From: Heptranchias perlo
Taxonomy: Eukaryota
DNA length: 64,000 nt
Direction of reading: 5' to 3'
Assembly (NCBI RefSeq): GCF_035084215.1
Contig: NC_090336.1
Coordinates: 53,754,001-53,818,000 of the forward strand
Below the pieces are notes generated by a model. The model was not told where the DNA came from and did no database searches. It was given only the letters and a program-made list of their open reading frames with translations. The position numbers and the translations under genes are program-made. Shown one piece after another: positions 2,456-61,983 of the stretch (within the stretch, counting starts at the first letter, position 1; each line of letters opens with the position of its first letter).

Positions 2456-2525
2456 CCCCAGGTTATAAATTGCACTGCATTATGCCTCTGCATCTACAAT
2501 GTATTTCCCACAGTCAGCACCTTAC

Positions 2526-3095
2526 CTGAAGGAATCCGCTTGTGCCTCTGAAGAGATGAAGAATCCACGAATGTTTGATGGCAGTTATCGCATTTATAGG
2601 GTTTCTCTCCAGTATGACGACGGAGGTGCACCTTCAGATGGGAACTGCGATAAAATGCTTTGCCACAAAAATTGCACGAATAAGGCCGTATACCCGTATG
2701 AGTGCGGCGGTGCTCGTTGAGGTTCGACTTCTCTGCAAATGCCCGTCCGCACTCCTCACATGCAAAGGGCTTCTCCCCCGTGTGTGTGCGGCGGTGCATC
2801 GTTAACTGTTCTTTACGAACAAATCTCTTTTCACAATAGTCACAGTTAAAACACTTCTCTTTATCGCGGACCGGTGAACTGGGATTCAGCATCATTTTAT
2901 TCTTATCACCGAGTCTACTTTCTACTTTATAGCTCCCAAAGTTTAACAGGTGCTTGAAGATGCCAGGTTTATCTTGGGATAGAGTACTGTTCCACTGTTT
3001 CAAACCATTAACCAAAACATCCCCAGGCAGAGTCTCTCCTTCATTATCTCGACAAGGCTTTGGAAGATCGTAACCACTATCTTCATTGATTAAAA
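2526..3095 (-). CDS. PRDM-like gene: zinc-finger exon copy B (linker + 4 C2H2 fingers), phase 1-1
   Basis: Acceptor tcttttttatccag-like polypyrimidine tract, donor G|gtaag, 570 bp open frame; CDYC..HRRTH-TGEKP-CEEC..H-TGIRP-CNFC..H-TGEKP-CDNC..HKRIP. Confidence 0.9.
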
Positions 3096-3266
3096 CTGGA
3101 TAAAAAGACAAAAGGAAAAAGATAAGATGATCAACAATCCCCACAGAAATACATGGATAGGAGTGGAGAATAAGCAGTTTACTAGTGGATGACAGGAAGA
3201 TTTCCAATGGTTTGTATCATCAGTGATCGCTGATTTGACATCAATTATGGTAGCCTGGTGCAGCTT

Positions 3267-4060
3267 TGTAAGAAAAGCACTGTACAAACTTCTGAATTAT
3301 TATAAACCTTAGCACTACACAAGCTTTCTTCATTATTATAAAACTTTTGTTCAAGTAAAATACATGATAGTTTAACTATGAACAGAGAAGGGCTGTCTAT
3401 CTTTATCAAAACAAGCTTTTTACAACCTTGTGAAAGAGAAGGTTCCTTTAGCAATTAAGCACCTGGCGCCATCCTTGTTTATCAGTTCGGAAGGGGAGTC
3501 ATCCCTAGCTATGTTATGCTTTGCTTGAATATGAGGGTTAGTGCCACCGTAGAGGCCACTAATCATTAGAGAGGTGGTAGCATCAATGGTGGAAAGCACA
3601 AGGGAGTCACCCAGAGGTTTATCATACTTGGGGTTGAAGATAAGGGCTCATCAATAGAGGGTTGTTCGTGTTACCTGAGGAATCCAGGAAGTAGAGGCTT
3701 ATAGCAGTCCCTTTTGAGACAGAGGAGATGATTGATGGGAAGCTTATACAGGCATACAGAGCTTATTGTCTCTGAAATATATATAAGTGAGGTGCTTTTT
3801 GGTATCTAACCAGAACATTCTCAGGGCGAGGCTGGCGCCCATTGACATGTTTGGGGGTCTGTGCTTACGTGAACAATAAGTCAGGTTGTATCAATCTAAC
3901 CAGCATACTTAATTGTACTCTTGTATTTTAAACATCTTTGTTACTTGTTATAATTTCTTAATAAAGATATTATACTTTGGAACCAACAGCTTCACGGCCT
4001 TTATTAAGGACAAGAACAGTTTAAGTAAAAGACACATTGGTATATATATTTTTATTCACA
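3267..4060 (+). mobile_element. Solo LTR related to the LTRs at 21808 and 36066
   Basis: Starts TGTAAGAAAAGCACT; shares GGGGAGTCATCCCTAGC, GTCAGGTTGTATCAAT, AATAAAG and TTGGAACCAAC blocks; 3' boundary approximate. Confidence 0.8.
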
Positions 4061-4556
4061 ACTTTTAAAGAGTTCGAAGTTTGCATTCTTCTTCTCAACT
4101 GCTTAAATATAAATGATATTCCCTCTCCTTTTAGGTTTCCAACTGCCTAAGTCATGTACCATTTCCCAATTGGGCCTCTACCATTCTGCAGGCCAATAGG
4201 AAGTACATATGAATGCGGCCCTCACCTCTCAGCAGACAGGCCAACTCTGACCAAGAGCTCACAGTGTAGAGAAATGGTACGGGGAGATTCTACCTCCTAC
4301 CATTCTGCAGTACAGCATGTCAATGCACAACCCTTTCTACTGCAGAAATTACTCTAACATACTGGACTGGAGCACAAATGTGTTGACACTCAGTTTCAAT
4401 CCTCTATTTCTTTAAATATTTCTTGCTCTCTTGTTCCTTTCAGTCTTGTATTTGTCTCTCTGTTGCTTCCAATTTTTGCTTTGTCCCCTCTAGTTCTCTG
4501 TAACTCAGTTTCTTTTTCCTCCAGCAATGCTTGCTAGTCAGGGAATGTGCTATGCA

Positions 4557-5380
4557 CATAGAATCACACAGCACAGAAAGAGGCCATTCGGCTCATCGTC
4601 CCTGTGCCAGCTCTTTGAAAGAGCTCTCCAATTAGTCCCATTCCTCTGCTCTATTAAATCTCCCCTTAACTTTCTCTGCTCTGAGGAGAACAACCCCAGC
4701 TTCTCTAGTCTCTCCACATAATTGAAGTCCTGCATTCCTGGTACCTTTCCAGTAAATCTCCTCTGCATCCTCTCAAGGCCTTGACATCCTTCCTTAAGAG
4801 TGGTACTCAGAATTGGACACAATGTTCCAGCTGCGGCCTAACCAGTGATTTATAAATGTTTAGCATAGCTTCCTTCCTCTAGTACATTCTGCCTCTGTTT
4901 ATAAAGCCAAGGATACTGTCTGCTTTTTAACAGCCTTCTCAACTTGTCCTGCCACCTTCAAAGATTTGTGTACATACACACCTAGGTCTCTCTGTTCCTG
5001 CACCAGCTTTAAAATTGTACCATTTAGTTTATATTGCCTCTCTTCATTCTTCCTACCAAAATGCATCACTTCACAGCCTTAAATTGCATTTGCCATGTCT
5101 ATGTCCTTCTGAAATCTATTATTATCCTCCTCACTGTTTACTACATTTCTGAGTTTTGTGTCATCTGCAAACTTCGAAATTATGCCCTGTATACCCAAGT
5201 CCAAATCATTAATATATATCGAAAAGAGCAGTAGTCCTAATACCGACCCCTGGGGAACACCACTGCACACTTCCCTCCAGTCTGAAAAACAACCGTTCAC
5301 CACTACTCTCTGCTTTCTGTCTCTTAGCCAATTTCATATCCATGCTGCCACTGCCCTTTAAAGTCATGGGCTTCAATTTA
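4557..5380 (-). mobile_element. CR1 LINE fragment with internal deletions
   Basis: [18 protein letters not shown] and RKLRGDLIE motifs on the minus strand. Confidence 0.88.
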
Positions 5381-5679
5381 ATGCTGTTTGCTGAATTCTT
5401 CCTTCACCTCCCCCCTCCATTCTCTCTCACTGTATCTTTAAAATAAATAAAATGTAAACAGCTTTTCCAATCCACGTCTCTTGCGTCCCACTGTCCATTT
5501 TAGAGATGGGAACCATAATGAGAAAATTGGCCACTGATTGTGGCTGAAAATAAACTGTCTCCAAAGGACAGTTCCTTAGCCAATCCTAAAGAATCACATC
5601 AGGCCAAGTTCTTACATAATTTAAAGCACCAATCCAGGAAGTAATACTGTAAGACAAGTTATATTGTCTGTGGTGATAG

Positions 5680-6425
5680 ATTGGGGAATGTTGATGTACA
5701 AAGGGACCTGGGTGTTTCTTGTCCACCAGTCACTGAAAGCAAATATGCAGGTGCAGCAAGCAGTTAGGAAGGCAAATGGTATGTTGGCCTTTATTGCAAG
5801 AGGATTTGAATACTGGAGCAAGGATGATGTCTTACAGCAGTTATACAGGGACTTGGTGAAACCACACCTGGAGTATTGTGGGCAGTTTTGGTCTCCTTAC
5901 CTAAGAAAGGATATACTTGCCATAGAGGAGTGCAGCGAAGGTTCACCAGACTGATTCCTGGGATGGCAGGACTGTCGTATGAGGAGAGATTGGGTCCACT
6001 CGACCTGTATTCACTCAAGTTTAGAAGAGTGAGAGGGGATCTCATTGAAACATATAAAATTCTGACAGGGCTAGACAGACTGGATGCAGGGAGAATGTTT
6101 CCCCTGGCTGGGGGGTCCAGAACGAGGGGTCATAGTCTCAGGATACGGGGTAGGACATTTAGGACTGAGAAGAGGAGAAATTTCTTTACTCAGAGGGTAG
6201 TGAACCTGTGGAATTATCTACCACAGAAGGCTGTGGAGGCCAAGTCACTGAATATATTTAAGATGGAGCTAGATAGATTTCTAGACACAAAAGGCATCAA
6301 GGGGTATGGGGAGAGAGCGGGAATATGGTATTGAGATAGAGGATCAGCCATGATCATATTGAATGGTGGAGCAGGCTCGAAGGGCCGAATGGCCTACTCC
6401 TGCTCCTATTTTCTATGTTTCTATG
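5680..6425 (+). mobile_element. CR1 LINE, 5'-truncated
   Basis: PHLEYC, RGDLIETYKI, FFTQRVVNLWN; tail (TTTCTATG)2. Confidence 0.92.
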
Positions 6426-6499
6426 GTGCAAGCATCCCAGTGGTATGCAGTGTGCTGTGGTTGAATTAAGTATTGGACTTCGAAAATGTTGACAATAAA

Positions 6500-6955
6500 A
6501 TAAAACTTGCATTTATATAGCGCCTTTCACGACCTCAGGACGTCCCAAGGCGCTTTACAGCCAATGAAGTACTTTTGAAGTGTAGTCACTATTGTACTGT
6601 AAGAAACGCGGCAACCAATTTGCGCACAGCAAAGTCCCCCAAACAGCACTGTGATAATGACCAGATAATCTGTTTTAATTATATTGGCTGAGGGATAAAT
6701 ATTGGCCAGAACACCGGGGAGCACTCCCCTGCTCTACTTTGAATAGCGTCATGGGATCTTTTACATTCACCTGAGGGAGCAGACTGGGCCTGGGTTTAAC
6801 GTCTCATCTGGAAGATGGCACCTCCAACAGTGCGGCACTCTCTCAGTACTCGCACTGGAGCGTCAACCTAGATTATGTGCTCAAATCTCTGGAGTGGGAC
6901 TTGAACCTACAACCTTCTGACTCAGAGGCGAGAGTGCTACCAACTGAGCCACATC
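6500..6955 (-). mobile_element. tRNA-derived SINE (Deu-core/SacSINE1-like) with L2-type tail
   Basis: Minus strand: GTGGCTCAGTTGG A-box, GGTTCAAGTCCC B-box, tail AGGCGCTATATAAATGCAAG. Confidence 0.75.
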
Positions 6956-7274
6956 TGAATTAGCACAATAATATTGTTATAATAGTATTAGTTTTAGTGA
7001 TTGATTCCTGAAATGTTTGTGATATTTATAGAGTTACAAAGAAATTTCAGAGGTTTATCTTCTTGGACATTTTACCAGTTATTATTCACCTGCCTTGGGG
7101 GATTGAATAATTGAGTCTACAACAGGGTAAACTGTACAAGAAAAAACAGGATAGATGTGCCAAATGGCCGTACCACATTCAATATTTTATGTTTCATATC
7201 TGTCTTATATTTCCTACCATATAGATGAAATACACAAGATACGACTTTTTATTTTCATCTCAACCTTGCCACTG

Positions 7275-7577
7275 TACTAGAGGACATAGATTTAAGCTGA
7301 TTGGCAGAAGGATTAGAGGGGACATGAGGAAAAAACTTTTTTACCCAGAGGGTGGTGGGAGTATGGAATTTGCTGCCCGAATTGGTGGTAGAGGCAGGGA
7401 CCCTCAACTCTTTTAAAAAGTACCTGGACCTGCACCTAAAGTGCTGTAAGTTGCAGGGCTACGGACCGGGTGCTGGAAGGTGGGATTAGAATGGTCACCT
7501 AGTTGTTCTTCGAGCCTGCGTGGACACAATGGGCCGAATGGCCCCCTTCTGTGCTGTATCTTTTCTATGGTTCTATG
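7275..7577 (+). mobile_element. CR1 LINE 3' end
   Basis: TRGHRFKL..; GGGCCGAATGGCC hairpin; TTCTATGG tail. Confidence 0.85.
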
Positions 7578-7639
7578 GTACAAAAGCAGTATGCAAAGGC
7601 CGGTGAAGTGCTAAGCAAATACCTGGTGGATCTCAATAA

Positions 7640-7935
7640 CTTGCATTTAAGGAGCTTCTCAGGAACATTATCAAACAAAATTTGACACCAAGCCACAGAA
7701 AGCGATTTTAGGGCAGGTGATCAAAAGCTTGGGCAAAGAGGTAGGTTTTAAGAAGCGACTTAAAAGAAAGCGTGGCGGAGAGGTTTAGGGAGGGAATTCC
7801 AGAGCTTGGGGTCTCGGCAGCTGAAGGGACGGCCGCCAATGGTGGAGCGATTAAAATCAGAGATGCGCAAGATGCCAGAATTGAAGGAGCGCAGAGATCT
7901 CTGAGGGTTGTTGGGCTGAAGGAGGATACAGAGAA
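7640..7935 (-). mobile_element. L2-type LINE 3' fragment
   Basis: RSLRS..TIGGRPFS..PKLWNSLP motif (ORF 7760-7945). Confidence 0.7.
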
Positions 7936-8429
7936 AAGCAGTCACTTTCGTTTTATCAGCCAGTTTCAGAGTGGCCTAGACAGATGCATAGAAGCCCACT
8001 GTCCACCCACTTTCTCCACCAAGGATGATATATGGGGTTCGAGAAAAACAGCAAGCATGACGAAGGGAAGGATGTAATTTAAAATGATTGTGCTGGTTCA
8101 ATGGGAGAATCCTTCAGGCAGGAAAGTGAAAACATGGCTTACACTGTGGCCAGTAGATGGCATCTGTGAGCTAATTTCTTTGAAATTATACTTTACAGTT
8201 ATAATAGAATGTAAAATATTTATATGGTATATCAAGAACACATGGCATAACACTTATGAGAGTAGGTCCTATAACTTACTCATGCATCCAGTGCTCAGGA
8301 GTTATTGAAAATGGTATGGAAAAGGGAGATTTGGAAAATTACTCTGCAAGATTAGGACAAGGGGAACAGAGGTTCAGACTAGTACAAGACAAATTTCAGA
8401 CTGGCATCAGGAAGTCTTTTTGACAGAGT

Positions 8430-9005
8430 GATTCCTATGCCAGGATCACCCTGGAGAGCAAAGATAAACCCCAGCTTCTTTTCTCTATTCCTAACCTCCT
8501 TAAACCTCTATTCCTCCTTAAACCCCTTAGCCCTGCCAAAACCAAACTCTATGCCAGAATCATCCTGGAGAGCAAAGATAACCACCAGCATTTTTTCTCC
8601 ACTTCCAACCATCTCCTTACAACCCTCTGCCCTGCCCTGCCCTGTCCACCCTTACCTCCAACAAAAAGTGCAAGGAGCACGTGAATTTTGTCACTAAGAT
8701 TGAGACCACCCTTTCAGCTGCCACTGTTGCTACCCCCCACCTCCCTTCTCCTTGCCCCAACATGCCAAACCTTCTCCCAGGCACTCCCCTGCCCAAGTCC
8801 TGATCCCGCATCTTTCTCTAGTTTCTACCCCATCATGCCCCCTCCAAGCGAGTCTTGTCCATGAGATCTATCTCCAGCTCCCTTAACCTATTCCCACTAA
8901 ACCGCTGCCCAGCCAACTTCCGTTCCTGGCCTCCATGCTAGCTGACATTGCAAACAGTTCCCTCTGCTCAAGTATGGTCCCCCTCCCTTTCAAATCTGCC
9001 ATCAT
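8430..9005 (+). mobile_element. Decayed L2-type LINE internal fragment
   Basis: C/T-rich strand with L2-like remnants (RII.ESKDNP, FVTKIET, LASMLADIAN); short local duplication at 8436/8549. Confidence 0.55.
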
Positions 9006-10135
9006 CTAAGCGATCAGATGTCCGCCCTGGAGTGATACTACTGGTCTCCGGGCCATTGGATTGCATGCACGCTGAGGGGGAAGGAGGAGGGGAAATCAGC
9101 CAGGTTTCTGCCTCTTATGGCTATCCAGAGATCCCTGCTGGAAAATACATATGTGGGTAAAGACAAAATTGGGCAAGGTTGTGATATCAACAGAGCTATG
9201 ATTGAGTACCCTGCCAATGCTCACACTTGAAGAAAGGGCACTTCGTGAGGGTCCTAAAGTCAATTACTAGCCACAGACCCCCTCATAAGCCAATGCCTTT
9301 AGGAGAAGAGGGAGAAAATTGGGGCAGGGGTAAGGAGAAGCCTGAAAAATGTCTCCATGTGTGAAGCTGGTCGAAGGCTGTTTGCAGCTTTTTTCATTTA
9401 TAAGTTATAGTCATCTCATGAAATTGCCTTGACCTGCACAAAACAGCCTCTGAGTTTTTACACTATGCCAAATATCCCATTACTTCTCTGTATGGTGTAT
9501 TATTTTAAATCAGGTTCATCACATTACAAACCAGTATTACGTGTTTACAACCCAATGTTTGTTTGTTTAGTTTTTGTTTGATATAGTAGGGTAAATAACA
9601 ACAGCTTTTTTCCCCAAGTTCCAACTCCAGTGATTTCCTTTTGAAAGGATAAAATTGGACCTCCCATTAATGGCCGAGTGAGTCAATGCGTTATAGTAAT
9701 GAGCCTGGAAATATCAGGTTTGATCCATGGTCTGCGCTGAGTAAGCATGGGGCAATACACAAGGCTTCATTGTCTCCTAAGCGAAGAAGGGATCACTGCC
9801 AATCACTATCCACGGATCTCTGCTAAAAACGTGCATGTTTGGATGTTAGAGGAGCACAGGATCGGGCTCAGCCATAATACCGAAATGGGCTGCTGACACT
9901 TGCTGCCTAGGTTCACATATGAAGACCGGTTAACTGGGTGAAGTATCAGGGAACTTCTGTGCCCATGGATCTGAACCACATCTTCAGGAGAGAAGGGGGA
10001 TAAAAATACAAGGATTATTTATTTGTAACTTAAGTCAATGAAATCATTCTTTGAATCCTTTAACATAAACATGTAGCAAAGCACTGGATTCACTGCTTAG
10101 CAGTCAAATTATTCAGTTTACCAAAAGATTGTTAC

Positions 10136-10264
10136 CTTTATTTTCTGATGGGTTTAACTGCTTGCTGCCAATGTTAGTTCCATCACAATTGCCTGACTCT
10201 CGTTTTTCCACTGGTTCCGTCCCCTCTGAATGTATTAACATTGTATACTTGGGTTTAGAGCACG
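10136..10264 (-). CDS. PRDM-like gene: spacer exon between the two zinc-finger exons, phase 1-1
   Basis: Acceptor gtatttttcttag, donor AAG|gtaac, 129 bp open in the required phase: (A)CSKPKYTMLIHSEGTEPVEKRESGNCDGTNIGSKQLNPSENK. Confidence 0.6.
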
Positions 10265-11002
10265 CTAAGAAAAATACACAAACTGGATTAAGGCTGTAAT
10301 ATGTTCACAGTTACACACCGTGCATCAAAAGTGGTCAGTTAAGAGGTAGATACACCGACTGCAGCTACATACTTAACACTCAGCAGCAAATATTACAGCT
10401 TGGCTATCCAGAGCTGCCACATTAGAGGATGCAAAACTACCATAAGGATATGCTGATAGGGTTAAATGAAGAGGGGTGGGAGGAGGCTCGTGTAGAGCAT
10501 AAACGCCGGCATAGACCAGTTGAGCCAAGTAACCTGTTTCTGTGCTGTAGACTACATGTAATTCTATGTAATTTGACTGACATGAGTGACAAGTCATATT
10601 GTAAAACACAGACATGGTTTAAAAAGAAGCCGTCTTATAATTGCAGAGAGGGCAAAGAGGTAGAACAACTGCATGCACTTCTGTTACAGTGATTCAAAAT
10701 TATAATATTCCATTGGGCATTTGGCAAATAAAGGTTTGCAATCACTTTTAGAAGGGTGGTTCTAAGTCTTCCACAGACATGAAGTGACAAGATAACGTGT
10801 AGGTAGCTCAGTTTCACATGGAAAGCCTTTTCATTAAACAATCAATTATAAAAATTGCAACATTAACTTCAGGTTTAATATTATCTAATAAGCATTTGTG
10901 TGCAAAAAGCTCCCACACAAATGTTGCAGAAGGTGCCTCTACATGTTTGCACTGTAATATGCTTCCATACTTGGAACACCGTTTCCACAGTCAGCACCTT
11001 AC

Positions 11003-11590
11003 CTGAAGGAATCCGCTTGTGCCTCTGAAGAGATGAAGAATCCACGAATGTTTGATGGCAGTTATCGCATTTATAGGGTTTCTCTCCAGTATGACGACAG
11101 AGGTGCACCTTCAGATGGGAACTGCGATAAAATGCTTTGCCACAAAAATTGCACGAATAAGGCCGTATACCCGTATGAGTGCGGCGGTGCTCGTTGAGGT
11201 TCGACTTCTCTGCAAATGCCCGTCCGCACTCCTCACATGCAAAGGGCTTCTCCCCTGTGTGTGTGCGGCGGTGCATCGTTAACTGTTCTTTACGAACAAA
11301 TCTCTTTTCACAATAGTCACAGTTAAAACACTTCTCTTTATCGCGGACCGGTGAACTGGGATTCAGCATCATTTTATTCTTATCACCGAGTCTACTTTGT
11401 ATTTTGTCGCTCTCAAAGTTTAACAGATGCTTAGGTTTATCTTGGGATAGAGTACTGTTCCACTGTTTCAAACCATTAACCAAAACATCCCCAGGCAGAG
11501 TCTCTCCTTCATTATCTCGACAGTCATTCTCAAGCCAAGGCTTTTGAGGGTCACAAATTTCACCTTTTGGAAGAACACCATTAACTGAAT
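11003..11590 (-). CDS. PRDM-like gene: zinc-finger exon copy A (linker + 4 C2H2 fingers), phase 1-1
   Basis: Acceptor tttttataacacag, donor G|gtaag, 588 bp open frame; fingers match copy B except LCR vs LRR. Confidence 0.9.
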
Positions 11591-11864
11591 CTGTGTTATA
11601 AAAATAAATAAGTTTATAAAGGTCCACTGATGGGATTCATAAAGAACTTGCCTAATCAGTGTATACCAAGATTTGGAACTCATGTGAATCTATGCAAAGG
11701 AGCTTCCACAGAAATGTTAGCGCAGTTTCAGCCATTTCTTTCTTCCAAGCAAACAAATGTTAATGTTGTAACATAGTAGCAATGTCATTTAACTTTTCAA
11801 CAGAAGGTCACTAGTCCTTACAAAAAAATCCAAGAATAAAATTCAATTTCAAGGAGTCAGGTAT

Positions 11865-12060
11865 CTTACGAGAAGAGTTGATCTATTTTACTAAGTCTTG
11901 AGAGGCGAGCAATTCACAAATACTTTATCAGTCATTACATTTATATGGATCTTCTCCCTTGTGGCAGCAGATATGCATTTCCGACTACAGCGATAAAATG
12001 CTTTCACAGGAATAATACACATGCAGGAGGGATACTCATCTGTGTTAATGGATCCAATCA
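11865..12060 (-). pseudogene. Dead third copy of the zinc-finger exon (3' part)
   Basis: AAAGCATTTTATCGC shared exactly with copies A/B; frameshifted KAFYR..MHICCHKGEDPYKCND..VFVNCS vs KAFYR..VHLCRHTGEKPYKCDN..TFVDSS; ends in gtaag. Confidence 0.7.
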
Positions 12061-12069
12061 TCCTTAGAT

Positions 12070-13240
12070 ACAGGGGTGGTGCCAGTGGACTGGGGAATTG
12101 CAAATGTTACACCATTGCTCAAAAAAGGGTGTAAGGATAAACTCAGCATCTACAGGCCAGTCAGTTTAATCTCAGTGGTGGGGAAACTTTTAGAAACAAT
12201 AATCCGGGTCAAAATTAACAGTCACTTGGACAAGTGGGGATTAATTAAGGAAAGCCAACATGGATTTGTTAAAGGCAAATCGTGTTTAACTAACTTGATA
12301 GAGTTTTTTGATGAGGTAACAGAGAGGGTCGATAAGGGCAATATGGTTGATATAGTGTATATGGACTTCCAAAAGGCGTTTGATTAAGTGCCACATAATA
12401 GGCTTGTCATCAAAGTTGAAGCCCATGGAATAAAAGGGGTAGTGGCAACATGGATACAAAATTTGCTAAGTGACAGGAAACAGAGAGTAGCGGTGAACGG
12501 TTGTTTTTCAGACTGAAGGAAGGTATACAGTGGTGGTCCCCGGGGGTCGGTACGAGGACCATTGCTTTTTTGATATATATTAATGACTTGGACTTGGGTG
12601 GACAGGGCACAATTTCAAAATTTGCAGATGATAGAAAACTTGGAAGTGCAGTGAACAGTGAGGAGGATAGTGATGGACTTCAAGAGAATCTAGTCAGGCT
12701 GGTGAAATGGGCAGACATGTGGCAGATGAAATTTAATGCAGAAAATTCAGAAGTGATACATTTTGGTAGGAAGAACGAAGAGAGGCAATATAAACTAACG
12801 GGTACAATTCTAAAAGGGGTTCAGGAACAGAGAGATCTGGGGGTATATGTGCACAAATCGTTGAAGGTGGCAGGGCAGGTTGAGAAAGCGGTTAAAAAAG
12901 CATACAGGATCCTGGGCTTTCTAAATAGAGGCATAGAGTACAAAAGCAAGGAAGTCATGATGAACCTTTATAAAACACTGGTTCGGCCACAACTGGGGTA
13001 TCGTGTCCAGTTCTGGGCACCGCACTTCAGGAAAGATGTGAAGGCTTTAAAGAGGGTGCAGAAGAGATTTACTAGAATGGTTCCAGGGATGAAGGACTTC
13101 AATTACATGGATAGACTGAAGAAGCTGGGGTTGTTCTCCTTACAGCAGAGAAGGTTGAGAGGAGATTTGGTAGAGGTATTCAAAATCATGAAGGGTCTAG
13201 ACAGAGTAGATAGAGAGAAACTGTTTCCATTGGCAGAAGG
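12070..13240 (+). mobile_element. CR1 LINE RT region
   Basis: YRPVSLISVVGKLLE, YMDFQKAFD, SKFADD, RLRGDL motifs with stops and frameshifts. Confidence 0.92.
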
Positions 13241-14015
13241 TGATGCATGTTGGTTAAAAAATAAAAGCAGCAATTATGCTCTAAATGGAAGTAGGCTAGG
13301 TAGAAGAGCAGAGGGATTTAGGGGTACAGGTTCACAGTACATTAAAGGCAGCAGCTCAAATTGATAAGGCCATAAAAAATCTAATGGCATTCTGCGTTTA
13401 ATCAGAAGAGGTTTAGAATTTTAAAGCCAAGAGGAAACAATGAGCCTATATAAAACCTTAAGACCTCAATCAGAGTACTGTGTGCAGTGTTGGGCTCCGC
13501 ACTATCGGAAGGATATTGAAGTTTTAGAGAGGGTACAGTGAAGATTCACTAGGACGCTGCCAGGTATGAGGAAAAAGAAATACGAAGAAAGAATTGAAAA
13601 ATTGGGTCTTTTATCGTTGTAACAACGCAGGTTACGAAGCGATATGATAGAAATATTTACAATTATGAAAGGATGGGACAAGGTAGATAGAAACAGACTG
13701 TTTCCAGTAATTGAGGAGCCTCGAACGAGGGGCCATAGATATAAGATAACATGTAAGGTTTAGAACAGAGGATAGGAGAAACCTCTTTACTACAGAATTG
13801 TGAGGCTCTGGAATTCACTTCCAGGATTAGTAATTGAGATAGAAACTATATCAATGTTCAAGATTAGATTGGATAGCTGGATGAAGGGATATGGGAACAG
13901 GGTGGGTGAATAAGATTAGGACTATTTCCTCGCATGGAAAGTAACCACCAACATGAACTGGATGAGTTGAATGGCTTGTTTCCATTTGTAACTTCTATGT
14001 ATCATGCTATCTATG
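13241..14015 (+). mobile_element. Older CR1 LINE 3' fragment
   Basis: Second decayed copy of the RDLGV..EYCVQ..WNSLP region with a different tail. Confidence 0.75.
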
Positions 14016-14499
14016 ATTTTTTTTCCAACTTCCCCTTTAGTTCGTTTTCTGGTATGTTAAATTTGTGCCCTCTCACTACCATCATGTCAATACAGGGAAA
14101 ATAGTGAGGACCAATGCAATCAGAGTTATAAGGATTTTGACCTTTTAAGTCACTAGGACATGGGAGGGTGGGGGGTGGGGGTGATGCAATTTAATTTAGA
14201 TAGGTGTAAATTAATTATAATGGGATCAAGGATCCAAAAGAGTACGTGTTAAATGGAACAGTGGTCCTGCATGCTGATCATGAGAAATCTATAGCAGATA
14301 AATCTATAAAATTGTGAGCAAGAGTCCTTAATTGCAGTAGAAAGGGCAAGTAAGGTCCTGGGGTGCAATTGCAGGGTGATGGATTTTTGCTTTATAAAGT
14401 GTTGATCAGATTTCATCTGGATTACAGTGTGCAGTTCCGGTCACCATGGGAAATATATTGGGCTGGAAAATAACGACACACACTGTTATTAATGTGGAA

Positions 14500-14735
14500 T
14501 CATTTTTTTACGCAGCGAGTTGTAACGATCTGGCATGCACTGTCTGAAAGGGTGGTGGAAGCAGATTCAATAATAACTTTCAAAAGGGAACTGGGTAAAT
14601 ACTTGAAGGGAAAAACTATACAGGGCCGTGGGGAAAGAGCAGGGGGATGGGACTAGTTGGATAGCTCTTTCAAAGAGCCGGCACATGCACGATGGGCCGA
14701 ATGGCCTCCTCCTGTGCTGTACTATGATACTATGA
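14500..14735 (+). mobile_element. CR1 LINE 3' end
   Basis: FFTQRVV..W.AL; GGGCCGAATGGCCTCCT; (TACTATGA)2 tail. Confidence 0.8.
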
Positions 14736-15672
14736 AATCAGCCTGCAAGTTCAGGGGATTAGGAGATACGCCGGTCGCTTTACTTGCTGGTCGATTTACG
14801 CTGCTCCACCGATTGCTTCACACAAACAGCATCTCGCCCTTAGCCTCCCCGTTATTTTTAAGAACTTGCTGGATTTGCACATTTATTGCCCATTAAACTC
14901 GCTGCAGAAAGTTAGGGCTGGAACTTAACAGCTTAAGTACCCTTTTAACGATGTGATAATTGTTAAAGCAATGCCAATCAACCTCTCTGGCCCAGAAAGG
15001 GAAAAATTTAACTGTTCAATCTCATTCCTGCATGAAGTAAATTGTTGTTAGAGATTTTAAAAATGTTAAATTTTAAATGTTTTAATTTTTTTTCTTACTT
15101 TTCCTTTCTGACTCTTCTCTCCCTCTTAATCCAATCTTTCTTTCCCTCTCGTGATTTCTCTTTCTGTACCTGATTTGACTCAAATTCACCCTCCTTCTCC
15201 ATCATTGCTCTGTTTCTTTCTCAATCCTTAAATCTCATTGGTTAAGGAGATACCCTTTCGGTTCCGCATTCACCAAGATCCCAGATGCCCCGTTGCCCTC
15301 CCCGTAATCAGCTCGCATTTCCAGCAAGTTACGGCGGAAAAATATTTTGAGCTGAAGAGGGCAGGAAAAAGTCGAACTAACGCGCACACCACGAGATGTC
15401 CCGCTCCAGCAATATCTGGCCCATTATCGCTCAAGGGACGAGGGAGGCAGGCAACAAAGGTGATTCTAGGTCTCAGGAATTTAAGTTACGAATAAAAATT
15501 AAAATAAGAGGTTATATATAATTGAAAGTTTTCAAGGTTACGAAGTGAACTGACAAAACTGATCCAGGCAAATGGTTTACTATGGTGAAGGGTTCAAAAG
15601 TCAGAAAATACAAATTAAAAATTAGAAAATTAGGAATAAGAAAGGAAGTTAGGAGCAACTTTTTCCACCCAC

Positions 15673-15947
15673 CTTGGTCTGTCTCCTCCTCAGTTTTTGT
15701 TCCTTGCTGTTTCTGTTGCACAGAATATTTCCCAGCCACCTCTATTCTGTTATAAGTGCAAAAATGTTCATGTTCCACTGTGAGCGATTTCCTTTTATGC
15801 ACAGGCCTGTTGATTTCATCATCCCCGAGCCAGATGAACAGTTCATGTGCTGGTTCAATTGAGCGGCACACTCTATAATAGATCTTTCCACTGCACTGGG
15901 AAAGGGTCAGATTTTGCTCTGCGGGTGTCTTGGCAAGATTCACAAAC
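15673..15947 (-). CDS. PRDM-like gene: PR/SET C-terminal exon (phase 2-1)
   Basis: Acceptor tttatccag; (R)FVNLAKTPAEQNLTLSQCSGKIYYRVCRSIEPAHELFIWLGDDE..; donor CAAG|gtgggt joins exon 11590 in frame. Confidence 0.85.
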
Positions 15948-17353: not shown

Positions 17354-17415
17354 CTCATCCAGTTGGATTTAGTTTCATCAAAGGCATGCAGATTGACCAA
17401 ATTTCTCTCCTGCAC
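17354..17415 (-). CDS. PRDM-like gene: short PR/SET middle exon (phase 0-2)
   Basis: ttcacag|VQERNLVNLHAFDETKSNWM(R)|gtgagt; NWMR is the PR-domain signature. Confidence 0.88.
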
Positions 17416-19456: not shown

Positions 19457-19728
19457 CATCTGGGAATATAGGTTTTCTGTTGGACCTTGTTCAACTGCAA
19501 TCTGGCCTTCATATGGTCCAAAAAGGACTCCTTTAGGTATGGTCTTCGCAGTGCACCATACTCCAAGCCCTCCCTCTCGATTCCCTGATGGTCCCACTGC
19601 AAGCCCCTGAGGAATGGTGTAAAATGCTCTCGAATGGGTGCCAAACTCAACAGATGTGTCCATGACAAAAACCGGTAGTCCAGCAGCAACAGATCCACCC
19701 ACAAAATACTCCTGACAGTCTTCAAAGA
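19457..19728 (-). CDS. PRDM-like gene: degenerate zinc-knuckle + PR/SET N-terminal exon (phase 1-0)
   Basis: tttttcttag|(F)FEDCQEYFV..PVFVMDT..TIPQGLAVGPS..GLGVWC..IPKGVLFGPYEGQI..YSQM|gtatgt; 272 bp. Confidence 0.9.
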
Positions 19729-21190: not shown

Positions 21191-21314
21191 ACGAGTTAAC
21201 ATTTTCACTACTGCTTTTTAGAGGGGTGTTGCTGTCTTTTGTTAGCTCCCTCAGAGATGGTGCTTGCACCTCCATTGATTGGTTTGAGACCATGTTTCCA
21301 CCAAGTATCACTTC
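21191..21314 (-). CDS. PRDM-like gene: probable first coding exon (ATG at 21293)
   Basis: ttcttgcag|EVILGGN-MVSNQSMEVQAPSLRELTKDSNTPLKSSSENVNS|gtaagt; phase 1 fits the next exon; AACATGG Kozak context. Confidence 0.7.
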
Positions 21315-21807: not shown

Positions 21808-22458
21808 TGTAAGAAAAGCACTATACAAGCTTTCTTTATAATATTGTAAACCTTGTTAAGGAAAAGCAGTATGTCAGCTTTGCTGTGAACAAAGGCTTTC
21901 TGTCTGTCCAAACAAGCTGTTTTAACGACCTTGTGAAAGAGAAGGCCTCCATGGGCAATTAAACATTTGGGCACCAATCGTGTTTATCAGTTAAAAGGGG
22001 AGTCATCCCTAGCCTTGTTACGATTTCCTTGAAGATGGAGTTTGTACCATCCTGAAGGCCACTAATCATTAGCGAGTTGTTAGTTCCAAAATGTTGTGTT
22101 CCTAAGGGAGAAGACTGATAGCAGCCTCATGGGACAGAGGGGATGATTGATGGGAGACACATACAGAACTAAATGTCTAAAATCTGTATAAAGTTGGCTG
22201 CGTTTCCACACATTTCTCAGAGTGCTCTCAGGGCAGGACTCGACTGCTCAAGTAATCAAGAAGTGCACTTCGAAGCCTTGGAAAGTGATCAACTTTGTGT
22301 CAGGTTGTATCAATGTGACCAGCATCTTTGATTGCACTCTTGTATTTTAATCTCTTTGTTACTTGTTATAACTTCTTAATAAAGCCATTATATTTTGGAA
22401 CCAACCACCTTACGACCTTTTGATTAAGGATTCGAACAGTAAAAGTATTTTACTTACA
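21808..22458 (+). repeat. 5' LTR
   Basis: TGTAAG..CTTACA (inverted termini); TATA-like GTATAAAG; AATAAA at 22378; direct repeat of 36066-36712. Confidence 0.93.
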
Positions 22459-22680: not shown

Positions 22681-23454
22681 TTATGGTGGGCTGGTGCGCT
22701 CACGGTCCGAGTGAGGTGGGCTGGTGCGCTCACGGTCTGAGTGAGGTGGGCTGGTGCGCTCACGGTCTGAGTGAGGTGGGCTGGTGCGCTCACGGTCCGA
22801 GTGAGGTGGGCTGGTGCGCTCACGGTCTGAGTGAGGTGGGCTGGTGCGCTCACGGTCTGTGTGAGGTGGGCTGGTGCGCTCACGGTCCGAGTGAGGTGGG
22901 CTGGTGCGCTCACGGTCCGAGTGAGGTGGGCTGGTGCGCTCACGGTCCGAGTGAGGTGGGCTGGTGCGCTCACGGTCCGAGTGAGGTGGGCTGGTGCGCT
23001 CACGGTCCGAGTGAGGTGGGCTGGTGCGCTCACGGTCCGAGTGAGGTGGGCTGGTGCGCTCACGGTCCGTGTGAGGTGGGCTGGTGCGCTCACGGTCCGT
23101 GTGAGGTGGGCTGGTGCGCTCACGGTCCGTGTGAGGTGGGCTGGTGCGCTCACGGTCTGAGTGAGGTGGGCTGGTGCGCTCACGGTCTGAGTGAGGTGGG
23201 CTGGTGCGCTCACGGTCTGAGTGAGGTGGGCTGGTGCGCTCACGGTCTGAGTGAGGTGGGCTGGTGCGCTCACGGTCTGAGTGAGGTGGGCTGGTGCGCT
23301 CACGGTCTGAGTGAGGTGGGCTGGTGCGCTCACGGTCCGAGTGAGGTGGGCTGGTGCGCTCACGGTCCGAGTGAGGTGGGCTGGTGCACTCTCGGTCTGA
23401 GTGAGGTGGGCTGGTGCGCTCACGGTCCGAGTGAGGTGGGCTGGTGCGCTCACG
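22681..23454. repeat. 30-bp minisatellite, ~26 copies
   Basis: Unit GTGAGGTGGGCTGGTGCGCTCACGGTCYGW, head-to-tail with no spacers. Confidence 0.98.
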
Positions 23455-29392: not shown

Positions 29393-29493
29393 TAACTAGG
29401 ATTGTAGATAAGGCTTTTATGGGGATGGGGGAGGGATCAGGTGTGGGGAAATTTAGAAATCTGAAGAGAAAAGTCAAAGCATTACAGCAGTGT
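29393..29493. repeat. Exact 101-bp inverted copy of 30274-30374
   Basis: Base-by-base reverse complement. Confidence 0.95.
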
Positions 29494-30404
29494 TCATTTA
29501 AGTTTAAGATTCTAGTTTCGGACTTAAGTATGTCACTCTTGAACTCAATGTGAAATTCTATTATATTATGATCACTCTTCCCCAGAGGATCCTTTACCAT
29601 GAGATTACTAATTTACCCTGTCTCATTACTCAAGACAAGATCTAAAATAGCTTGTTCCCTGGTTGGTTCCACAATGCATTGTTCTAGGAAACTGTCTTGA
29701 ATGCATTCCAAGAACTCATCCTCCAAATTACCTTTGCCAATTTGATTTGTCCAGTCGATATGAAGACTGAAGTCCCCCACGATTATCGCATTACCTTTGT
29801 TACAAGCTCCTATTATTTCTTGATTAATGCTCTAATAGTATAGCTACTGTTAGGGGGCATATAAATTACTCCCACCAGTGTTTTCTGCCCCTTGTTATTT
29901 CTCCACCCATACTGATTCTACTTCCTGATCTCCCGAGCCAAGATCCTTTCCCACTACTGTCCTTATGTCATTCTTTATTATCAGGGCTACCCCCCTCCTT
30001 TTTCAATTTGTCTGTCTTTTCCAAACATTAAGTATCCTGGAATATTTAGTTCCCAACCTTGGTCACCTTGCAACCACGTCCCGGTAATGGCTACTAGATC
30101 AAACCCATTTATCTCTATTCGTCTATCTTGTTACAAATGCTTCGTACATTCAGATAAAGCGCTTTTAATTTTTTTACCCTTTTTCCCTGCTTTGACGTTA
30201 TTCGCTGATGCTCCATTACCATTAAACTCTCTGTCCCTTCCTGTCACCCTCTGTTTATCTTACCCAAATCGTTACACTGCTGTAATGCTTTGACTTTTCT
30301 CTTCAGATTTCTAAATTTCCCCACACCTGATCCCTCCCCCATCCCCATAAAAGCCTTATCTACAATCCTAGTTATTCGATTCACCAGGACACTGGTCCCA
30401 GCCC

Positions 30405-36065: not shown

Positions 36066-36712
36066 TGTTAAAAAAAGCACTATACAAGCTTTCTTTATAA
36101 TATTGTAAACCTTGTTAAGGAAAAGCAGTATGTCAGCTTTGCTGTGAACAAAGGCTTTCTGTCTGTCCAAACAAGCTGTTTTTATGACCTTGTGAAATAG
36201 AAGGCCTCCATGGGCACTTAAACATTTGGGCACCATCTGTGTTTATCAGTTAGAAGGGGAGTCATCCCTAGCCTTGTTACAGTTTCCTTGAAGATGGAGT
36301 TCATAGCATCTTGAAGACAACTAATCATTAGGGAGTTATTAGAAGCAAAATGTTGCGTTCTTAAGAGAGAAGACTGATAGCAGCCTCATGGACAGAAGAG
36401 ATGATTGATGGGACTAAATGTCTAAAATCTGTATAAAGTTGGCTGCTTTTCCACACGTTTCTCAGAGTGCTCGCGGGGAAGGTCTGGACTGCTCAAGTAA
36501 TCAAGACCTTTGAAAGTGCACATTGAAGCCTTGGAAAGTGATCAACTTTGTGTCAGGTTGTATCAATGTGACCAGCATCTTTGATTGTACTCTTTGTCTT
36601 TTAACCTCTTCGTTAGTTGTTATAACTTCTTGATAAAGCCATTATACTTTGGAACCAACCACCTTGCGATCTTTTGATTAAGGACTCGAACGGTAAAGGT
36701 ATTTTACTTACA
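36066..36712 (+). repeat. 3' LTR
   Basis: Direct repeat of 21808-22458 with scattered substitutions and small indels; ends CTTACA. Confidence 0.93.
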
Positions 36713-45599: not shown

Positions 45600-46260
45600 C
45601 CCATTCAATGAGATCATGGTTGATCTGTATCCTAACTGCATTTACTTGCCTTGGTTCTGTATCCCTTAATACCCTTGGCTAGCAAAAATCTATCAATTTC
45701 AGATTTAAAGATATCAATTGAGCTAGCAACTACTGCTTTTTGTGGTAGAGCACCACACTTCTATCACCCTTTGTGCAAAGTCCTAACTTCCTTCCTAAAT
45801 GGCCTGGCTCTGATTTTAAGATTTTGTCCCACTTATCCTGGACTTCCCTCACGAGCAGAAAAAGCTTCTCTTCACCTATCCTATCAATTCCTTTCAAAAT
45901 CCTAAACACCTCAAATCATCCCTTCGTCCTCAACATTCCAGGGAATACAAGCCTAGTGTTTGTAATCTCGCCTCACAATTTAACCCTTGGAGCCCTGGTA
46001 ACATTGTGGTGAATACGCACTGCACACCTTCCAAGGCCAACATATCCTCTCAGGTCTCAGTGCCCTGAACTGAACACAGTACTCCAGATGTGGTCTGACC
46101 AGGGCTTTGCACAGCTGTAGCAAAACATCCCCCCCCCCCCCCCTCCCTTTTATAGTCTAGCCCTCTGGATATAAAAGGTTAACCTTCCATTAGCCTTTTT
46201 GAATTTTTTTTTTGTACCTGACCACTACATTTCAGTGAACCTGCAGCCTTTGCTTTTCGG
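45600..46260 (-). mobile_element. Decayed CR1 3' fragment
   Basis: Minus-strand ALVRPHLEYCVQF and CR1 tail features. Confidence 0.75.
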
Positions 46261-46479
46261 ATCTCTGAAATCTCCACCGTTGCGATGGTCCTGCAGCCTC
46301 CACAGCCCTGCTCCCCTGCCCCGAGGTCCCTCAATAACTCCTCCATCAACCAGGCTCACGCTGACTGTGGGCAACCAAGTGGTGCCAGGGAGATCAGTCA
46401 GAGCTCGACACACAAGGCCGCCACCATCCCACCACCCTTTCCTTTCCTTTACCCCGACCTTGGGAAGGGATCCAAGCCC

Positions 46480-46860
46480 CACCCTCCTCAGCCCCGCTCT
46501 CAAACACCGTGCGGGCCCAGCGCGCTATACGTCACCTCCCTCCATTGATCAACCGCCTTCGTCACGTGCGCCGCTCCGTCCGTCCGCCCGCCGCCGCGCG
46601 GGGTGAGGGAAGCGACGACGTCACTGCCAGTCGAACCCTTTCGCGTGGCGTGGCGTGACGTGACTCACGTGAGGCCCGCATGCGCGCGCTGGGAGAGCAG
46701 GACGAGAAGGGGAGGAGGAGGAGGGGGGGGGGGGGGGGGGAGGAAAAGAGCGACGCCCCAGATTGCGAGCACCGCGCAGGCGCGGATTCCCCATGCGCCG
46801 CCACCCCCTTCCCCCCCTCCTCCGCACGTGGCGGCCGGCAGCGTGCGCGCGGATCTGGAG
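46480..46860 (-). promoter_or_regulatory. CpG island; probable promoter and first exon of the PRDM-like gene
   Basis: Only CpG-dense non-repeat segment; E-box, CRE-like and NRF1-like motifs; minus-strand donor GAG|gtgacg at 46536/46535. Confidence 0.75.
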
Positions 46861-46944
46861 CAGAATTGGGTTTTTTTTTCAGGTAGTTTCAAGGCTCCTT
46901 CAACTCAGCTTGTGCAGCTGCCGAAAACAAATATTGTTTTCGAA

Positions 46945-47075
46945 AGCAAAATGCTGCGGATGCTGGAAATTCCAAATAAAAACCAGAAAATGCTGGAAAC
47001 ACTCAGCAAGTCAGGCGGCATCTGTGCAGAGAGAAACAGAGTTAATGTTTCAGGTCGATGACCCTTGGTCAGAAC
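46945..47075 (-). mobile_element. Penelope-type terminal remnant with decayed hammerhead motif
   Basis: Minus strand CTGACCAAGGGTCATCGACCTGAAACATTA followed by CAGATGCCGCCTGACTTGCTGAG. Confidence 0.5.
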
Positions 47076-60138: not shown

Positions 60139-60603
60139 CTAAAACACTCCAGGTACAAGGCGGTAAGCCACTGCATCCGTATAACGCTTCCAGTCCTTGC
60201 CATATTTGTTTAAGCAACGATGCTCATCCCTGATACAGCGATGGACCAGCAAAATTGTCATGTAGATGATGTAGAAGTATGGCAGGAGGTGTCCGAATCC
60301 ACAGGCCAGGCAGTAGGAAAGGGAGCCAATAAGATCCCCGGTGTAGTTAAAATGGCGAGCCACCCCCCAGAATCCAGAGACCATCAGCTTACTGTAGTGC
60401 TTTTTACCATCAATGGACACATAGGAACATTCAATATACGCAGGAATCCTGCCCCAGATCTTGCAGTTTCCATCTGTGCGCCGGAAGAGATCTTTCTGGT
60501 GGTTTGTCATTCTGAAAATGTAATAGCCAACCAGCCCCAAGAGAAGGACACCGACGACATTGGCTGTCGATAGTTGTACTGGGTTGTAGACTAGGTACAG
60601 GCC
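60139..60603 (-). CDS. DHCR7: 7-dehydrocholesterol reductase, last coding exon
   Basis: tctcag|[67 protein letters not shown]. Confidence 0.97.
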
Positions 60604-61004
60604 CTGAGACATTGAAGAGAACATTAGCTTCCAATTTAAGAATGGTAATATCATGAATATTTAGTAGCAGTCTTTTTTAAAACCTAATTTATTTGTAAGA
60701 ATAATACTCTATAAAATTACAGAATTAACAAGTGTGAAATACATATTCCCTCCTCCCGCAATGAGTGAGTTGTGAAAGGGCTTCCTCAGAAATGAAATAA
60801 ATGGAACACTTTACAGTTCTGATTCGGCCTTCAAAGTGAGGAAGATTCTAGCAATCTGTGGCGAGACATTAGCTGACATTCAGTCCATGTCGGTGAAACA
60901 TGCAGCCTCCCTCAGTTGAGCAGCTAAATTGGAATCTCGCCACGTCAGAAAATCTGAGGCACAAAACGGATAGCACTTGTTCCTCAAGGACTTGAACAAA
61001 TAAA

Positions 61005-61315
61005 CTAGGCTAACACTCCAGTGCAACACTGAGGGAGGCTGAATTGTTGGCGGTGCCATTTTATGGATGAGAGGTTAAACCAAGGCCCCATCTGCCTGTT
61101 CTAGTGGATGCCAAAGATTGGATAGTATTACTTAGAAGAAGAGCAGGAAGTTCTCCCAGAGCTGGACAACATTTTTCCTTCAACCACACCTCCAAAAACA
61201 GATAAACTGGTGATTCATCTCATTGCTGATCTTGTACCAGAATTCATTGCTTACGAAGCTCTTTGAGATATTTCCGAGAGAAGTGATAAGGCACTATATG
61301 AACGCACATCTCTTT
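61005..61315 (+). mobile_element. Deu-type SINE remnant in DHCR7 intron
   Basis: GGCTAACACTCCAGTGCAACACTGAGGGAG..GGATGAGAGGTTAAAC. Confidence 0.6.

Positions 61316-61839: not shown

Positions 61840-61983
<144 letters not shown>

Follow-up and report, generated by a model that had tools for sequence, protein, structure and literature searches.

How can two exons of a single gene, separated by 8,477 bp, remain almost identical while the introns around them do not align? This question is raised by a 64,000-nucleotide stretch of the Heptranchias perlo genome (the window), in which an initial annotation had recognized two phase 1-1 exons about 8 kb apart encoding the same zinc-finger module. Both exons, M1 (11003..11590; 588 bp) and M2 (2526..3095; 570 bp), are indeed phase 1-1, possess AG/GT ends, encode a linker followed by four fingers, and are exons of one gene on the minus strand. 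When its exons are joined by coordinate, the reading frame stays open for 673 codons and equals RefSeq isoform X1 (P0126), and the predicted protein matches H. perlo XP_067850216 residue for residue. The gene begins with an N-terminal coding exon (21191..21314), supported by the joined open frame and tblastn, followed by three PR/SET exons: the first (19457..19728) is identified by Pfam PRDM2_PR (E=1e-7) and by alignment to PRDM9 and PRDM11 structures, the second (17354..17415) by exon joining and tblastn, and the third (15673..15947) by PRDM2_PR (E=7e-14). Between M1 and M2 lies a 129-bp, phase 1-1 spacer exon, S1 (10136..10264), encoding 43 aa, and past the window's start the gene runs on through a second spacer (S2), a third module (M3) and the C-terminus. 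A 37-aa exon that precedes M1 in other sharks was not found in the Heptranchias window. The finger exons had thus been correctly recognized initially, but the spacer exon, third module and PR/SET domain were missed.

At the DNA level, compared in H. perlo alone (synonymous sites included), M1 and M2 form a mosaic of homogenised and divergent segments with sharp limits. A 414-bp tract comprising the distal linker, the four fingers and the first 18 bp of the downstream intron (2508..2921 in M2, 10985..11398 in M1) contains exactly two differences, both CpG transitions: a synonymous ACG/ACA difference at 2779/11256, and a CGT/TGT difference at 2622/11099 that changes Arg to Cys in M1 finger 3. 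Among silent sites of this tract, 1/52 four-fold and 0/74 two- or three-fold sites differ. The adjoining patch (2922-2964 in M2, 11399..11432 in M1) holds six substitutions and a 9-bp indel, assigned to a deletion in M1 as the three residues are present in every other shark copy. Next comes a 90-bp block without a single difference (2965..3054 and 11433..11522), and finally 5' ends that remain unconverted (3055..3095 in M2, from DNA alignment and trees; 11523..11590 in M1, which clusters with M1 from other sharks). The M2 90-bp block bears M1-type residues, which suggests that M1 was the source of at least part of it. Differences between the exons are clustered along their length (0/10,000 permutations). 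The initial description of some 400 bp with two CpG-type transitions, a divergent patch with a 9-bp indel and differing acceptors was accurate; the identical block and the early end of similarity in the downstream intron also stand, but at 90 bp rather than ~95 and 18 bp rather than ~15.

Outside the exons, the upstream introns of M1 and M2 do not align (147/200 shuffles reached the same score), and past +18 the downstream introns yield just a marginal, off-register 47-bp match (3/200 shuffles). Recent segmental duplication is ruled out because the introns are unalignable; equally similar introns, which the initial annotation had named as evidence against its reading, were not found. GC4 is 0.55 in the tract, compared with 0.40 in the PR exons of this gene and a range of 0.45-0.58 in DHCR7. 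Neither GC3 nor GC4 is clearly raised, only CpG sites are enriched (12/30 vs 17/138, p=0.0009), and non-CpG C is not, so the usual signature of biased conversion is not apparent. No general GC increase was seen in the tract.

The M1 and M2 pair was found in all 11 sharks analysed, with exactly two copies in ten of them, and comparisons among orthologues were run on protein sequences. In trees of 23 copies from the 11 sharks, columns 2-35 (the 5' ends) separate M1 from M2 with support of 98/96, whereas the linker and fingers cluster by lineage and not by position (AU p ≤ 3e-4). M1 monophyly is rejected with p-AU values of 1e-10 for the linker, 3e-4 for the distal linker plus fingers and 2e-25 for the fingers. 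The eight position-diagnostic columns all lie at or before column 23, and the 44 columns with lineage-specific residues common to both copies all lie at or beyond column 37. Among ten sharks, 25 of 29 minority finger states of M2 are mirrored in M1 of the same species, and 24 of 33 M1 states are mirrored in M2; as a control, just 1/29 M2 states is found in M3, whose fingers are 71-81% identical to those of M2. Private states shared by both copies occur in S. canicula (three columns), C. plagiosum (one) and Hemiscyllium (one), pointing to exchange that is recent and repeated. Homogenisation is incomplete: nine of the 33 M1 states are unmirrored, and position still determines how the proximal linker clusters among lamniforms and catsharks. 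Species-wise grouping, orthology-grouped parts, and silent-site identity beside divergent flanks, three hallmarks of concerted evolution, are present. The clustering of orthologues by species that had been proposed as a test was obtained for linker and fingers, and the suggestion of an old duplication whose copies stay nearly alike through conversion limited to the exon agrees with lineage grouping in these regions and position grouping at the 5' ends across the 11 sharks.

M1 and M2 are very likely the product of long-running concerted evolution by ectopic recombination. A single duplication, probably of a unit of finger exon and spacer exon, would have given rise to both before the squalomorph/galeomorph split, which we take to have occurred over 200 My ago. 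Thereafter, ~550 bp of homology 8.5 kb apart would have been a repeated substrate for non-allelic homologous recombination, with most events ending as gene conversion in either direction and occasional ones as unequal crossover. Conversion would thus be the main route, and purifying selection on the fingers would keep the copies similar enough for continued recombination. Tracts span the fingers, reach variably into the linker, and end at heterologies such as the 5' indels and intron position +18, so that a new mutation would either be lost or end up in both modules; M3, the older copy, would have escaped from exchange long ago. M1/M2 exchange probably spans the entire shark radiation, and is presumably about twice as old as exchange in gene pairs of ~100 My. 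For three of the four Callorhinchus copies the M1 5' profile gives the higher score, although M2 is matched as well, and the first copy matches neither; since these copies are not traceable to both M1 and M2, the shark crown is the sole bound on the age of the pair. Bony-vertebrate modules have no resolved placement among M1-M3 in the module tree.

Selection for the lockstep itself, a matter of why rather than how, would apply if M1 and M2 read the same motif, such as a direct repeat or two bridged sites, but we consider this rather doubtful. Two copies are maintained in 10/11 sharks, and changes from Gln to His at finger 1 position +3 and from Ser to Trp at finger 2 position +2 occur in both copies of most galeomorphs (Trp is found in M1 only in Heterodontus and in both copies in the other galeomorphs). 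Passive conversion between constrained neighbours makes the same prediction, however, and contact differences between M1 and M2 are tolerated by Heterodontus and S. canicula, the coelacanth modules have diverged from each other at contact positions, and sturgeons possess a single module. As for how, cycles of expansion and contraction through unequal crossover in the homologous tract are unlikely to be the main homogeniser in place of non-crossover conversion. Mustelus has three copies with a duplicated spacer (M1-S1-M2-S1'-M2-S2), Callorhinchus has four, Rhinatrema carries a 184-aa duplicate with two differences, and such a model has been put forward for the piccolo b finger exons (PMC3484663). 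Against this, 10/11 sharks retain exactly two copies, and short mosaic patches, including the 90-bp block and single mirrored residues, would take two crossovers but one conversion. Because Mustelus shows the predicted three-copy product, unequal crossover may nonetheless be part of the process; it is not fully separable from conversion, and expansion-contraction cycles are expected to leave the same sequence pattern.

An assembly or polishing artefact, in which reads of one copy overwrote the other, is highly improbable. Two older annotations (P0053, P0121) have lost or truncated their finger modules, so the repeat does trouble assemblers, but near-identical copies are already a prerequisite for cross-mapping, copy-specific differences are kept (some common to genera, as in M1 of Cetorhinus and Carcharodon), and M1 agrees between two C. 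punctatum assemblies. This objection, also anticipated initially, does not hold at the assembly level, the architecture and pattern being common to 11 species. Birth and death, with a separate recent duplication in each lineage and no later exchange, is scarcely credible: it would account for species-wise grouping over most of the exon, and modules were newly duplicated in Mustelus and probably Rhinatrema, but it is contradicted by the positional grouping of the 5' ends (98/96), by an S1 that differs from S2 and is orthologous across sharks, and by introns that do not align. Least probable is that purifying selection together with parallel substitutions sufficed to preserve the likeness of ancient duplicates: the fingers are indeed strongly conserved (7/16 contact columns invariant across 38 modules), but near-identity extends to synonymous sites, shared changes sit in the predicted disordered linker, and the equally constrained M3 mirrors so few states.

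Gene conversion among paralogous exons of one locus has precedents in dumpy and nebulin, and likewise, in what is described of them, in the clustered protocadherin variable exons. Protocadherin variable exons are used as alternatives, whereas M1 and M2 share an annotated transcript. In PRDM9, single 84-bp fingers are repeated within one exon; here, the homogenised unit is a whole four-finger exon that lies 8.5 kb from its twin. Tandem Repeats Finder detected no array within the finger exons, which are therefore not a PRDM9-like minisatellite. The two systems are alike in having a related PR/SET domain, fingers of the C2H2 type, and repeats coding for fingers that evolve in concert (for PRDM9, PMC5519329). 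DNA contacts are diversifying in PRDM9 and conserved in the present gene, with a contact heterozygosity of 0.21 vs 0.17 elsewhere (38 modules), a statistic not identical to Baker's. Teleost piccolo b (PMC3484663) likewise has a symmetric zinc-binding-domain exon amplified within one gene, a finger split over an exon boundary, and copy number altered by homologous exchange; however, the module is not a DNA-binding C2H2 module, it exists in 8-16 copies, and the author prefers unequal crossover with repeat divergence, whereas here two fixed copies stay near-identical. The gene pairs BMP8A/B, DDX19A/B and TUBG1/2 also combine an old duplication with regions that group by orthology or by species, but they are separate genes of ~100 My with tracts over exons and introns and raised GC3 (PMC2720389), whereas here two exons of one gene exchange no more than an exon segment and 18 bp of intron. 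Mosaic concerted evolution over hundreds of My is described as very rare in PMC6053082. The mechanism is already known and no new one is revealed; the novelty lies in how long the exchange has lasted, in a whole module as its unit, and in the gene itself. The locus provides a clean natural experiment in how a DNA-binding domain evolves in concert within one gene; the unconverted 5' ends, the escaped M3 and the diverged coelacanth modules serve as internal controls, and a change in a binding residue can be copied at once into both modules of a transcription factor.

The gene has both features of the PRDM family, C2H2 fingers and an N-terminal PR/SET domain; in P0126 the latter scores 112 bits with PRDM2_PR, where 27 is the cut-off, and it is present in 7/7 full-length proteins scanned. 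KRAB was found in 0/7 of these proteins and in 0/53 filtered upstream minus-strand frames (repeat-overlapping and short frames excluded), and SSXRD, a short motif of which a weak copy could escape, in none of the same proteins and frames. In Heptranchias, the first PR/SET exon encodes a degenerate zinc knuckle and a GPYEG motif with the Y276 equivalent, and the third retains the Y341 equivalent and has Leu at that of Y357. The Y357 equivalent is Leu, His or Gln in 11/11 sharks and Leu or His in 5/5 bony vertebrates, the chimaera orthologue retains Y357 with Ile at 276, and all three tyrosines are retained in 0/17 proteins. PRDM9 identity was rejected on the grounds of no KRAB or SSXRD, loss of Y357, and fingers in separate four-finger exons; elephant-shark PRDM9, by comparison, is a KRAB-SET protein with Y/Y/Y in Baker et al. 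2017 (PMC5519329), and differs from the chimaera orthologue in its Y276. The initial annotation cited PRDM9 only as a contrast and overlooked the PRDM9/11/ZNF408-type PR domain. PR-domain scores are 140 bits for shark ZNF408, 130 for PRDM9 structures and 126 for human PRDM11. The family groups with ZNF408 in the PR tree (91/87), and in the rooted tree, from which PRDM9 is absent, ZNF408 and three subclades of the family meet at an unresolved fork. By score, ZNF408/PRDM17 is the nearest named PR domain, and it too lacks Y357 (Vervoort et al. 2016, PMC4760075). ZNF408 itself was rejected, as sharks possess a separate ZNF408 with other finger contacts and layout; in sharks and coelacanth it has a different 10-finger array without the C-terminal Y.LIS..G.Y motif of the present gene, and both genes are present in Heterodontus as well as in Latimeria. 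PRDM11, which has no C2H2 array (PMC4760075), does not fit a Heptranchias protein with 12 zf-C2H2 stretches.

The gene appears to represent an uncatalogued jawed-vertebrate PRDM lineage close to ZNF408, judging from these sequence comparisons, with members in sharks, chimaera, sturgeons, coelacanth and caecilians. In the portion of the Vervoort supplement (PMC4760075) covered, 0/17 Callorhinchus entries start like the present protein. Among the matches listed, none was a named orthologue from a ray, skate, teleost, frog or amniote, and four new ones of 150 unnamed matches were examined; whale shark and zebra shark orthologues were likewise not among them, so absence elsewhere is weak evidence of loss. 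Databases label the lineage 'PRDM9-like', and such labels can mislead surveys of PRDM9 presence and absence.

At the protein level, the finger regions of M1 and M2 differ by one residue, and the exon does not encode the second His of the module's finger 4. The first full codon of S1 (10262-10260) encodes a conserved Cys that probably completes this finger as H-x6-C. The claim of the same linker and four fingers thus holds for the modules, but not for a complete fourth finger or full identity; similarly, the two identical DNA-reading modules proposed at the outset are near-identical, but the protein has three. AlphaFold (14-sequence alignment) gave a pTM of 0.23, low confidence for the PR domain, pLDDT below 50 for the linkers and ~80 for finger islands, which makes structural constraint an unlikely cause of the linker identity. 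The predicted function of the protein is most likely that of a transcription factor, with a putatively catalytically impaired PR domain and three four-finger islands, presumed to bind DNA, on flexible linkers; the islands most likely have similar predicted specificity. A bolder synthesis, possible but improbable, would make the lineage an uncatalogued sister of ZNF408, PRDM9 and PRDM11, its shark modules selected in lockstep for a paired or repeated motif, with a terminal C2HC finger to which the following exon contributes the last ligand, and with CpGs that may be restored by conversion. If true, PRDM9-type recombination would serve the opposite end, a coherent specificity across modules that shifts in single concerted steps.

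Use of the two exons was also addressed through isoform models. The possibility that M2 belongs to another transcript does not hold, with both exons in 5/5 Heptranchias RefSeq isoforms; the same is true of 6/6 Pristiophorus and 10/11 S. canicula models. Mutually exclusive use, as once suggested, is unsupported by these models. The remaining catshark model omits the spacer and M2, and could be a read-mapping artefact; exons of this kind collapse in short-read assemblies and may yield false exon-skipping isoforms.

The sole non-transposon duplicate in the window, as revealed by self-comparison (2505-3054 vs 10982-11522), involves two phase 1-1 exons on the minus strand, M1 (11590-11003) and M2 (3095-2526), each of which encodes a linker and four zinc fingers. 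M1 is a 100% match to the Heptranchias perlo "zinc finger protein 665-like" in a protein search, and seven exons of the window, once joined, form an open frame of 673 codons that agrees exactly with isoform X1 of this PRDM-type gene. Specifically, an N-terminal exon and three PR/SET exons are followed by M1, the 129-bp spacer exon S1, and M2; past the window start, the gene goes on with spacer S2, a third module (M3), and the C-terminus. The arrangement M1-S1-M2-M3 is present in all five Heptranchias isoform models. Profile comparison shows weak homology among the spacers S1, S2, and S3 (E 3e-4 to 1e-3, probability 20-39%), and for this reason the duplicated unit was probably a finger exon plus its spacer. 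A 37-aa exon precedes M1 in five other sharks and is duplicated in S. canicula; it was not found in the corresponding Heptranchias intron (11590-15673). Isoform models that skip one repeat unit (P0122 and P0005) are annotated in S. canicula (X10) and Callorhinchus (X6), and could be real or a mapping artefact, with short reads crossing exon ends of identical sequence.

M1 and M2 share a 3' tract of 414 bp, 18 bp of it intronic, with two differences, both of them CpG transitions in which M1 carries the decayed base; one replaces Arg with Cys in finger 3 of M1. On the 5' side of this tract is a patch in which six bases are substituted and M1 has lost 9 bp, beyond which 90 bp are identical before the 5' ends become unrelated. 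The initial annotation had described these duplicate exons, and alignment of both copies showed it to be right to within a few bases. No alignment links the two upstream introns, for which 147 of 200 shuffles did as well; between the downstream introns there is no more than a marginal match, out of register, which 3 of 200 shuffles equalled.

Orthologues carrying both exons were compared in 11 sharks from six orders. In alignment columns 1-35 of the M1/M2 proteins, mean identity is about 0.6-0.7 for the same position between species, as against 0.27-0.46 for M1 vs M2 within one species; from column 71 onwards, copies of the same species are 0.95-1.00 identical, and values between species go down to 0.68. 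The 5' tree splits M1 from M2 (98/96), and a constraint keeping M1 together was rejected for the linker (p-AU 1e-10), the distal linker plus fingers (3e-4), and the fingers (2e-25), with groups set by position in advance and segment limits chosen after viewing the alignment. Lineage-specific residues common to both copies occupy 44 columns, all at or after column 37, and the eight position-diagnostic columns all lie at or before column 23. Among the 10 three-module sharks (a count that leaves out Mustelus, where no M3 is annotated), 25 of 29 minority finger states of M2 are mirrored in M1 and 1 of 29 in M3; in the reverse direction, M2 mirrors 24 of 33 from M1. M3 groups by orthology, chimaera included (89/86). 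The initial reading of an old duplication followed by conversion thus stands in large part: M1 and M2 group by lineage in the linker and fingers, and by position 5'.

Exchange between M1 and M2 is episodic. Shared states private to one species occur in S. canicula (three columns), C. plagiosum (one), and Hemiscyllium (one), M1-specific residues are still present in Cetorhinus and Carcharodon, and lamniform and catshark copies sort by position in the proximal linker. Trp at position +2 of finger 2 is confined to M1 in Heterodontus and found in both copies in the other galeomorphs.

Taken as a whole, one old duplication followed by recurrent non-allelic recombination, mostly conversion, is very likely. 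A single old event would have yielded M1 and M2, and recurrent recombination between them, mainly conversion, would have been sustained because selection holds the fingers similar; heterologies would set the limits of exchange, and M3 would have left it through divergence. Cycles of unequal crossover would leave the same sequence pattern, and unequal crossover happened at least once; as the source of homogenisation, such cycles are improbable. Mustelus has the order M1-S1-M2-S1'-M2-S2, the product expected from an M1 x M2 crossover, and Callorhinchus has four copies with fingers 95-99% identical. Independent duplications in each lineage are contradicted. Selection alone as the force keeping the copies alike is likewise contradicted; M1 and M2 differ at 1 of 52 four-fold and 0 of 74 two/three-fold sites (130 codons). 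An assembly artefact is also contradicted.

In the converted tract (2527-2919, 11004-11396), CpG observed/expected is ~1.0-1.1 vs 0.24 in the PR exons, and synonymous CpGs are kept at 12/30 vs 17/138 in control exons (p=0.0009, post hoc test); silent-site GC in the tract shows no general rise. Hypomethylation and CpG-restoring mismatch repair are the candidate causes of this retention.

The fourth finger has only C-C-H within its exon, and the next exon supplies a Cys (10260-10262 in S1) seven residues past the His (H-x6-C). All 23 shark M1/M2 copies have this Cys, as do 35 of 45 fourth fingers detected by script, coelacanth and caecilians among them; the search pattern missed the two Scyliorhinus M3 fingers. 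In the AlphaFold model, each of the three modules keeps a pLDDT above 50 to just past the Cys, and the linkers have low values. With the H-x6-C ending, finger 4 would probably be of C2HC type and interrupted by an intron.

An exhaustive search with PR exon 1, plus a follow-up search, found closer relatives with one module in Acipenser and Polyodon, three diverged modules in Latimeria, two in Microcaecilia, and three in Rhinatrema, the first two with identical fingers; the shark gene and all of these relatives have the four-finger module in common. In Rhinatrema bivittatum (P0170), residues 259-442 and 482-665 form a 184-aa duplicate whose fingers are identical and which differs at two residues. 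Microcaecilia lacks it, and it reflects either a duplication that arose in parallel or an error of assembly. PR domain scores were 140 bits for shark ZNF408, 130 for PRDM9, and 126 for PRDM11. Identity with PRDM9 was rejected, with KRAB and SSXRD in 0/7 proteins and 0/53 upstream frames, and all three catalytic tyrosines kept in 0/17 family proteins; the published elephant-shark PRDM9 (PMC5519329) is instead KRAB-SET with Y/Y/Y. Identity with ZNF408 was also rejected, as a separate ZNF408 exists in the same species. A C-terminal Y.LIS..G.Y-type motif occurs in 16/17 family members and is lacking in ZNF408. The family groups with ZNF408 in the PR tree (91/87), and the rooted PR tree, built without PRDM9, did not resolve its monophyly. 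In Heterodontus francisci, the orthologue (P0009) and ZNF408 (P0305) both list a longest contig of 111,694,027, suggesting the same chromosome; the family possibly arose locally from a ZNF408-like ancestor.

The probable role of the protein is that of a transcription factor whose PR domain would be impaired and whose three four-finger islands have similar contacts; 7/16 contact columns are invariant across 38 chondrichthyan modules. M1/M2 identity is likely a by-product rather than selected, because coelacanth modules have diverged, sturgeons have a single module, and some sharks tolerate M1/M2 contact differences.

The finger-exon feature is real. Duplicated exons are already known to undergo conversion; the novelty here lies in how long the process has lasted within a single gene, in a unit that comprises a whole module of a DNA-binding domain, in the internal controls, and in what appears to be an uncatalogued PRDM lineage. 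The gene or its concerted evolution appeared in no title or abstract opening found, in a search that covered few subscription journals, and none of the 17 Callorhinchus Prdm entries in the searched part of the PMC4760075 supplement starts like the present protein. The shark-chimaera split is placed at 400 My in PMC5519329. Comparison papers cover mosaic concerted gene pairs (PMC2720389), piccolo b exon amplification (PMC3484663), and concerted-evolution duration (PMC6053082); protocadherin counts among the precedents.

Upstream on the same strand are two exons of an ERG4/ERG24-family sterol reductase (Pfam; 60142-63189, minus), which from its sequence we take to be DHCR7 and which serves as a synteny marker. 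A CpG-island-like stretch (46001-47000; GC 0.58, CpG o/e 0.75) that precedes the first coding exon by 25 kb may represent a promoter or an exon of the 5' UTR, and a 30-bp minisatellite (22685-23454; 25.7 copies, 97% match) also lies upstream of that coding exon. The introns are packed with many LINE reverse-transcriptase fragments. Finally, the window holds a DDE_Tnp_4 transposase fragment (53949-54503, minus), a perfect 101-bp inverted repeat (29393-29493/30274-30374, spanning 29393-30374), and three copies of a non-LINE interspersed element (3311-4027, 21810-22458, and 36069-36712), the last two 89% identical.
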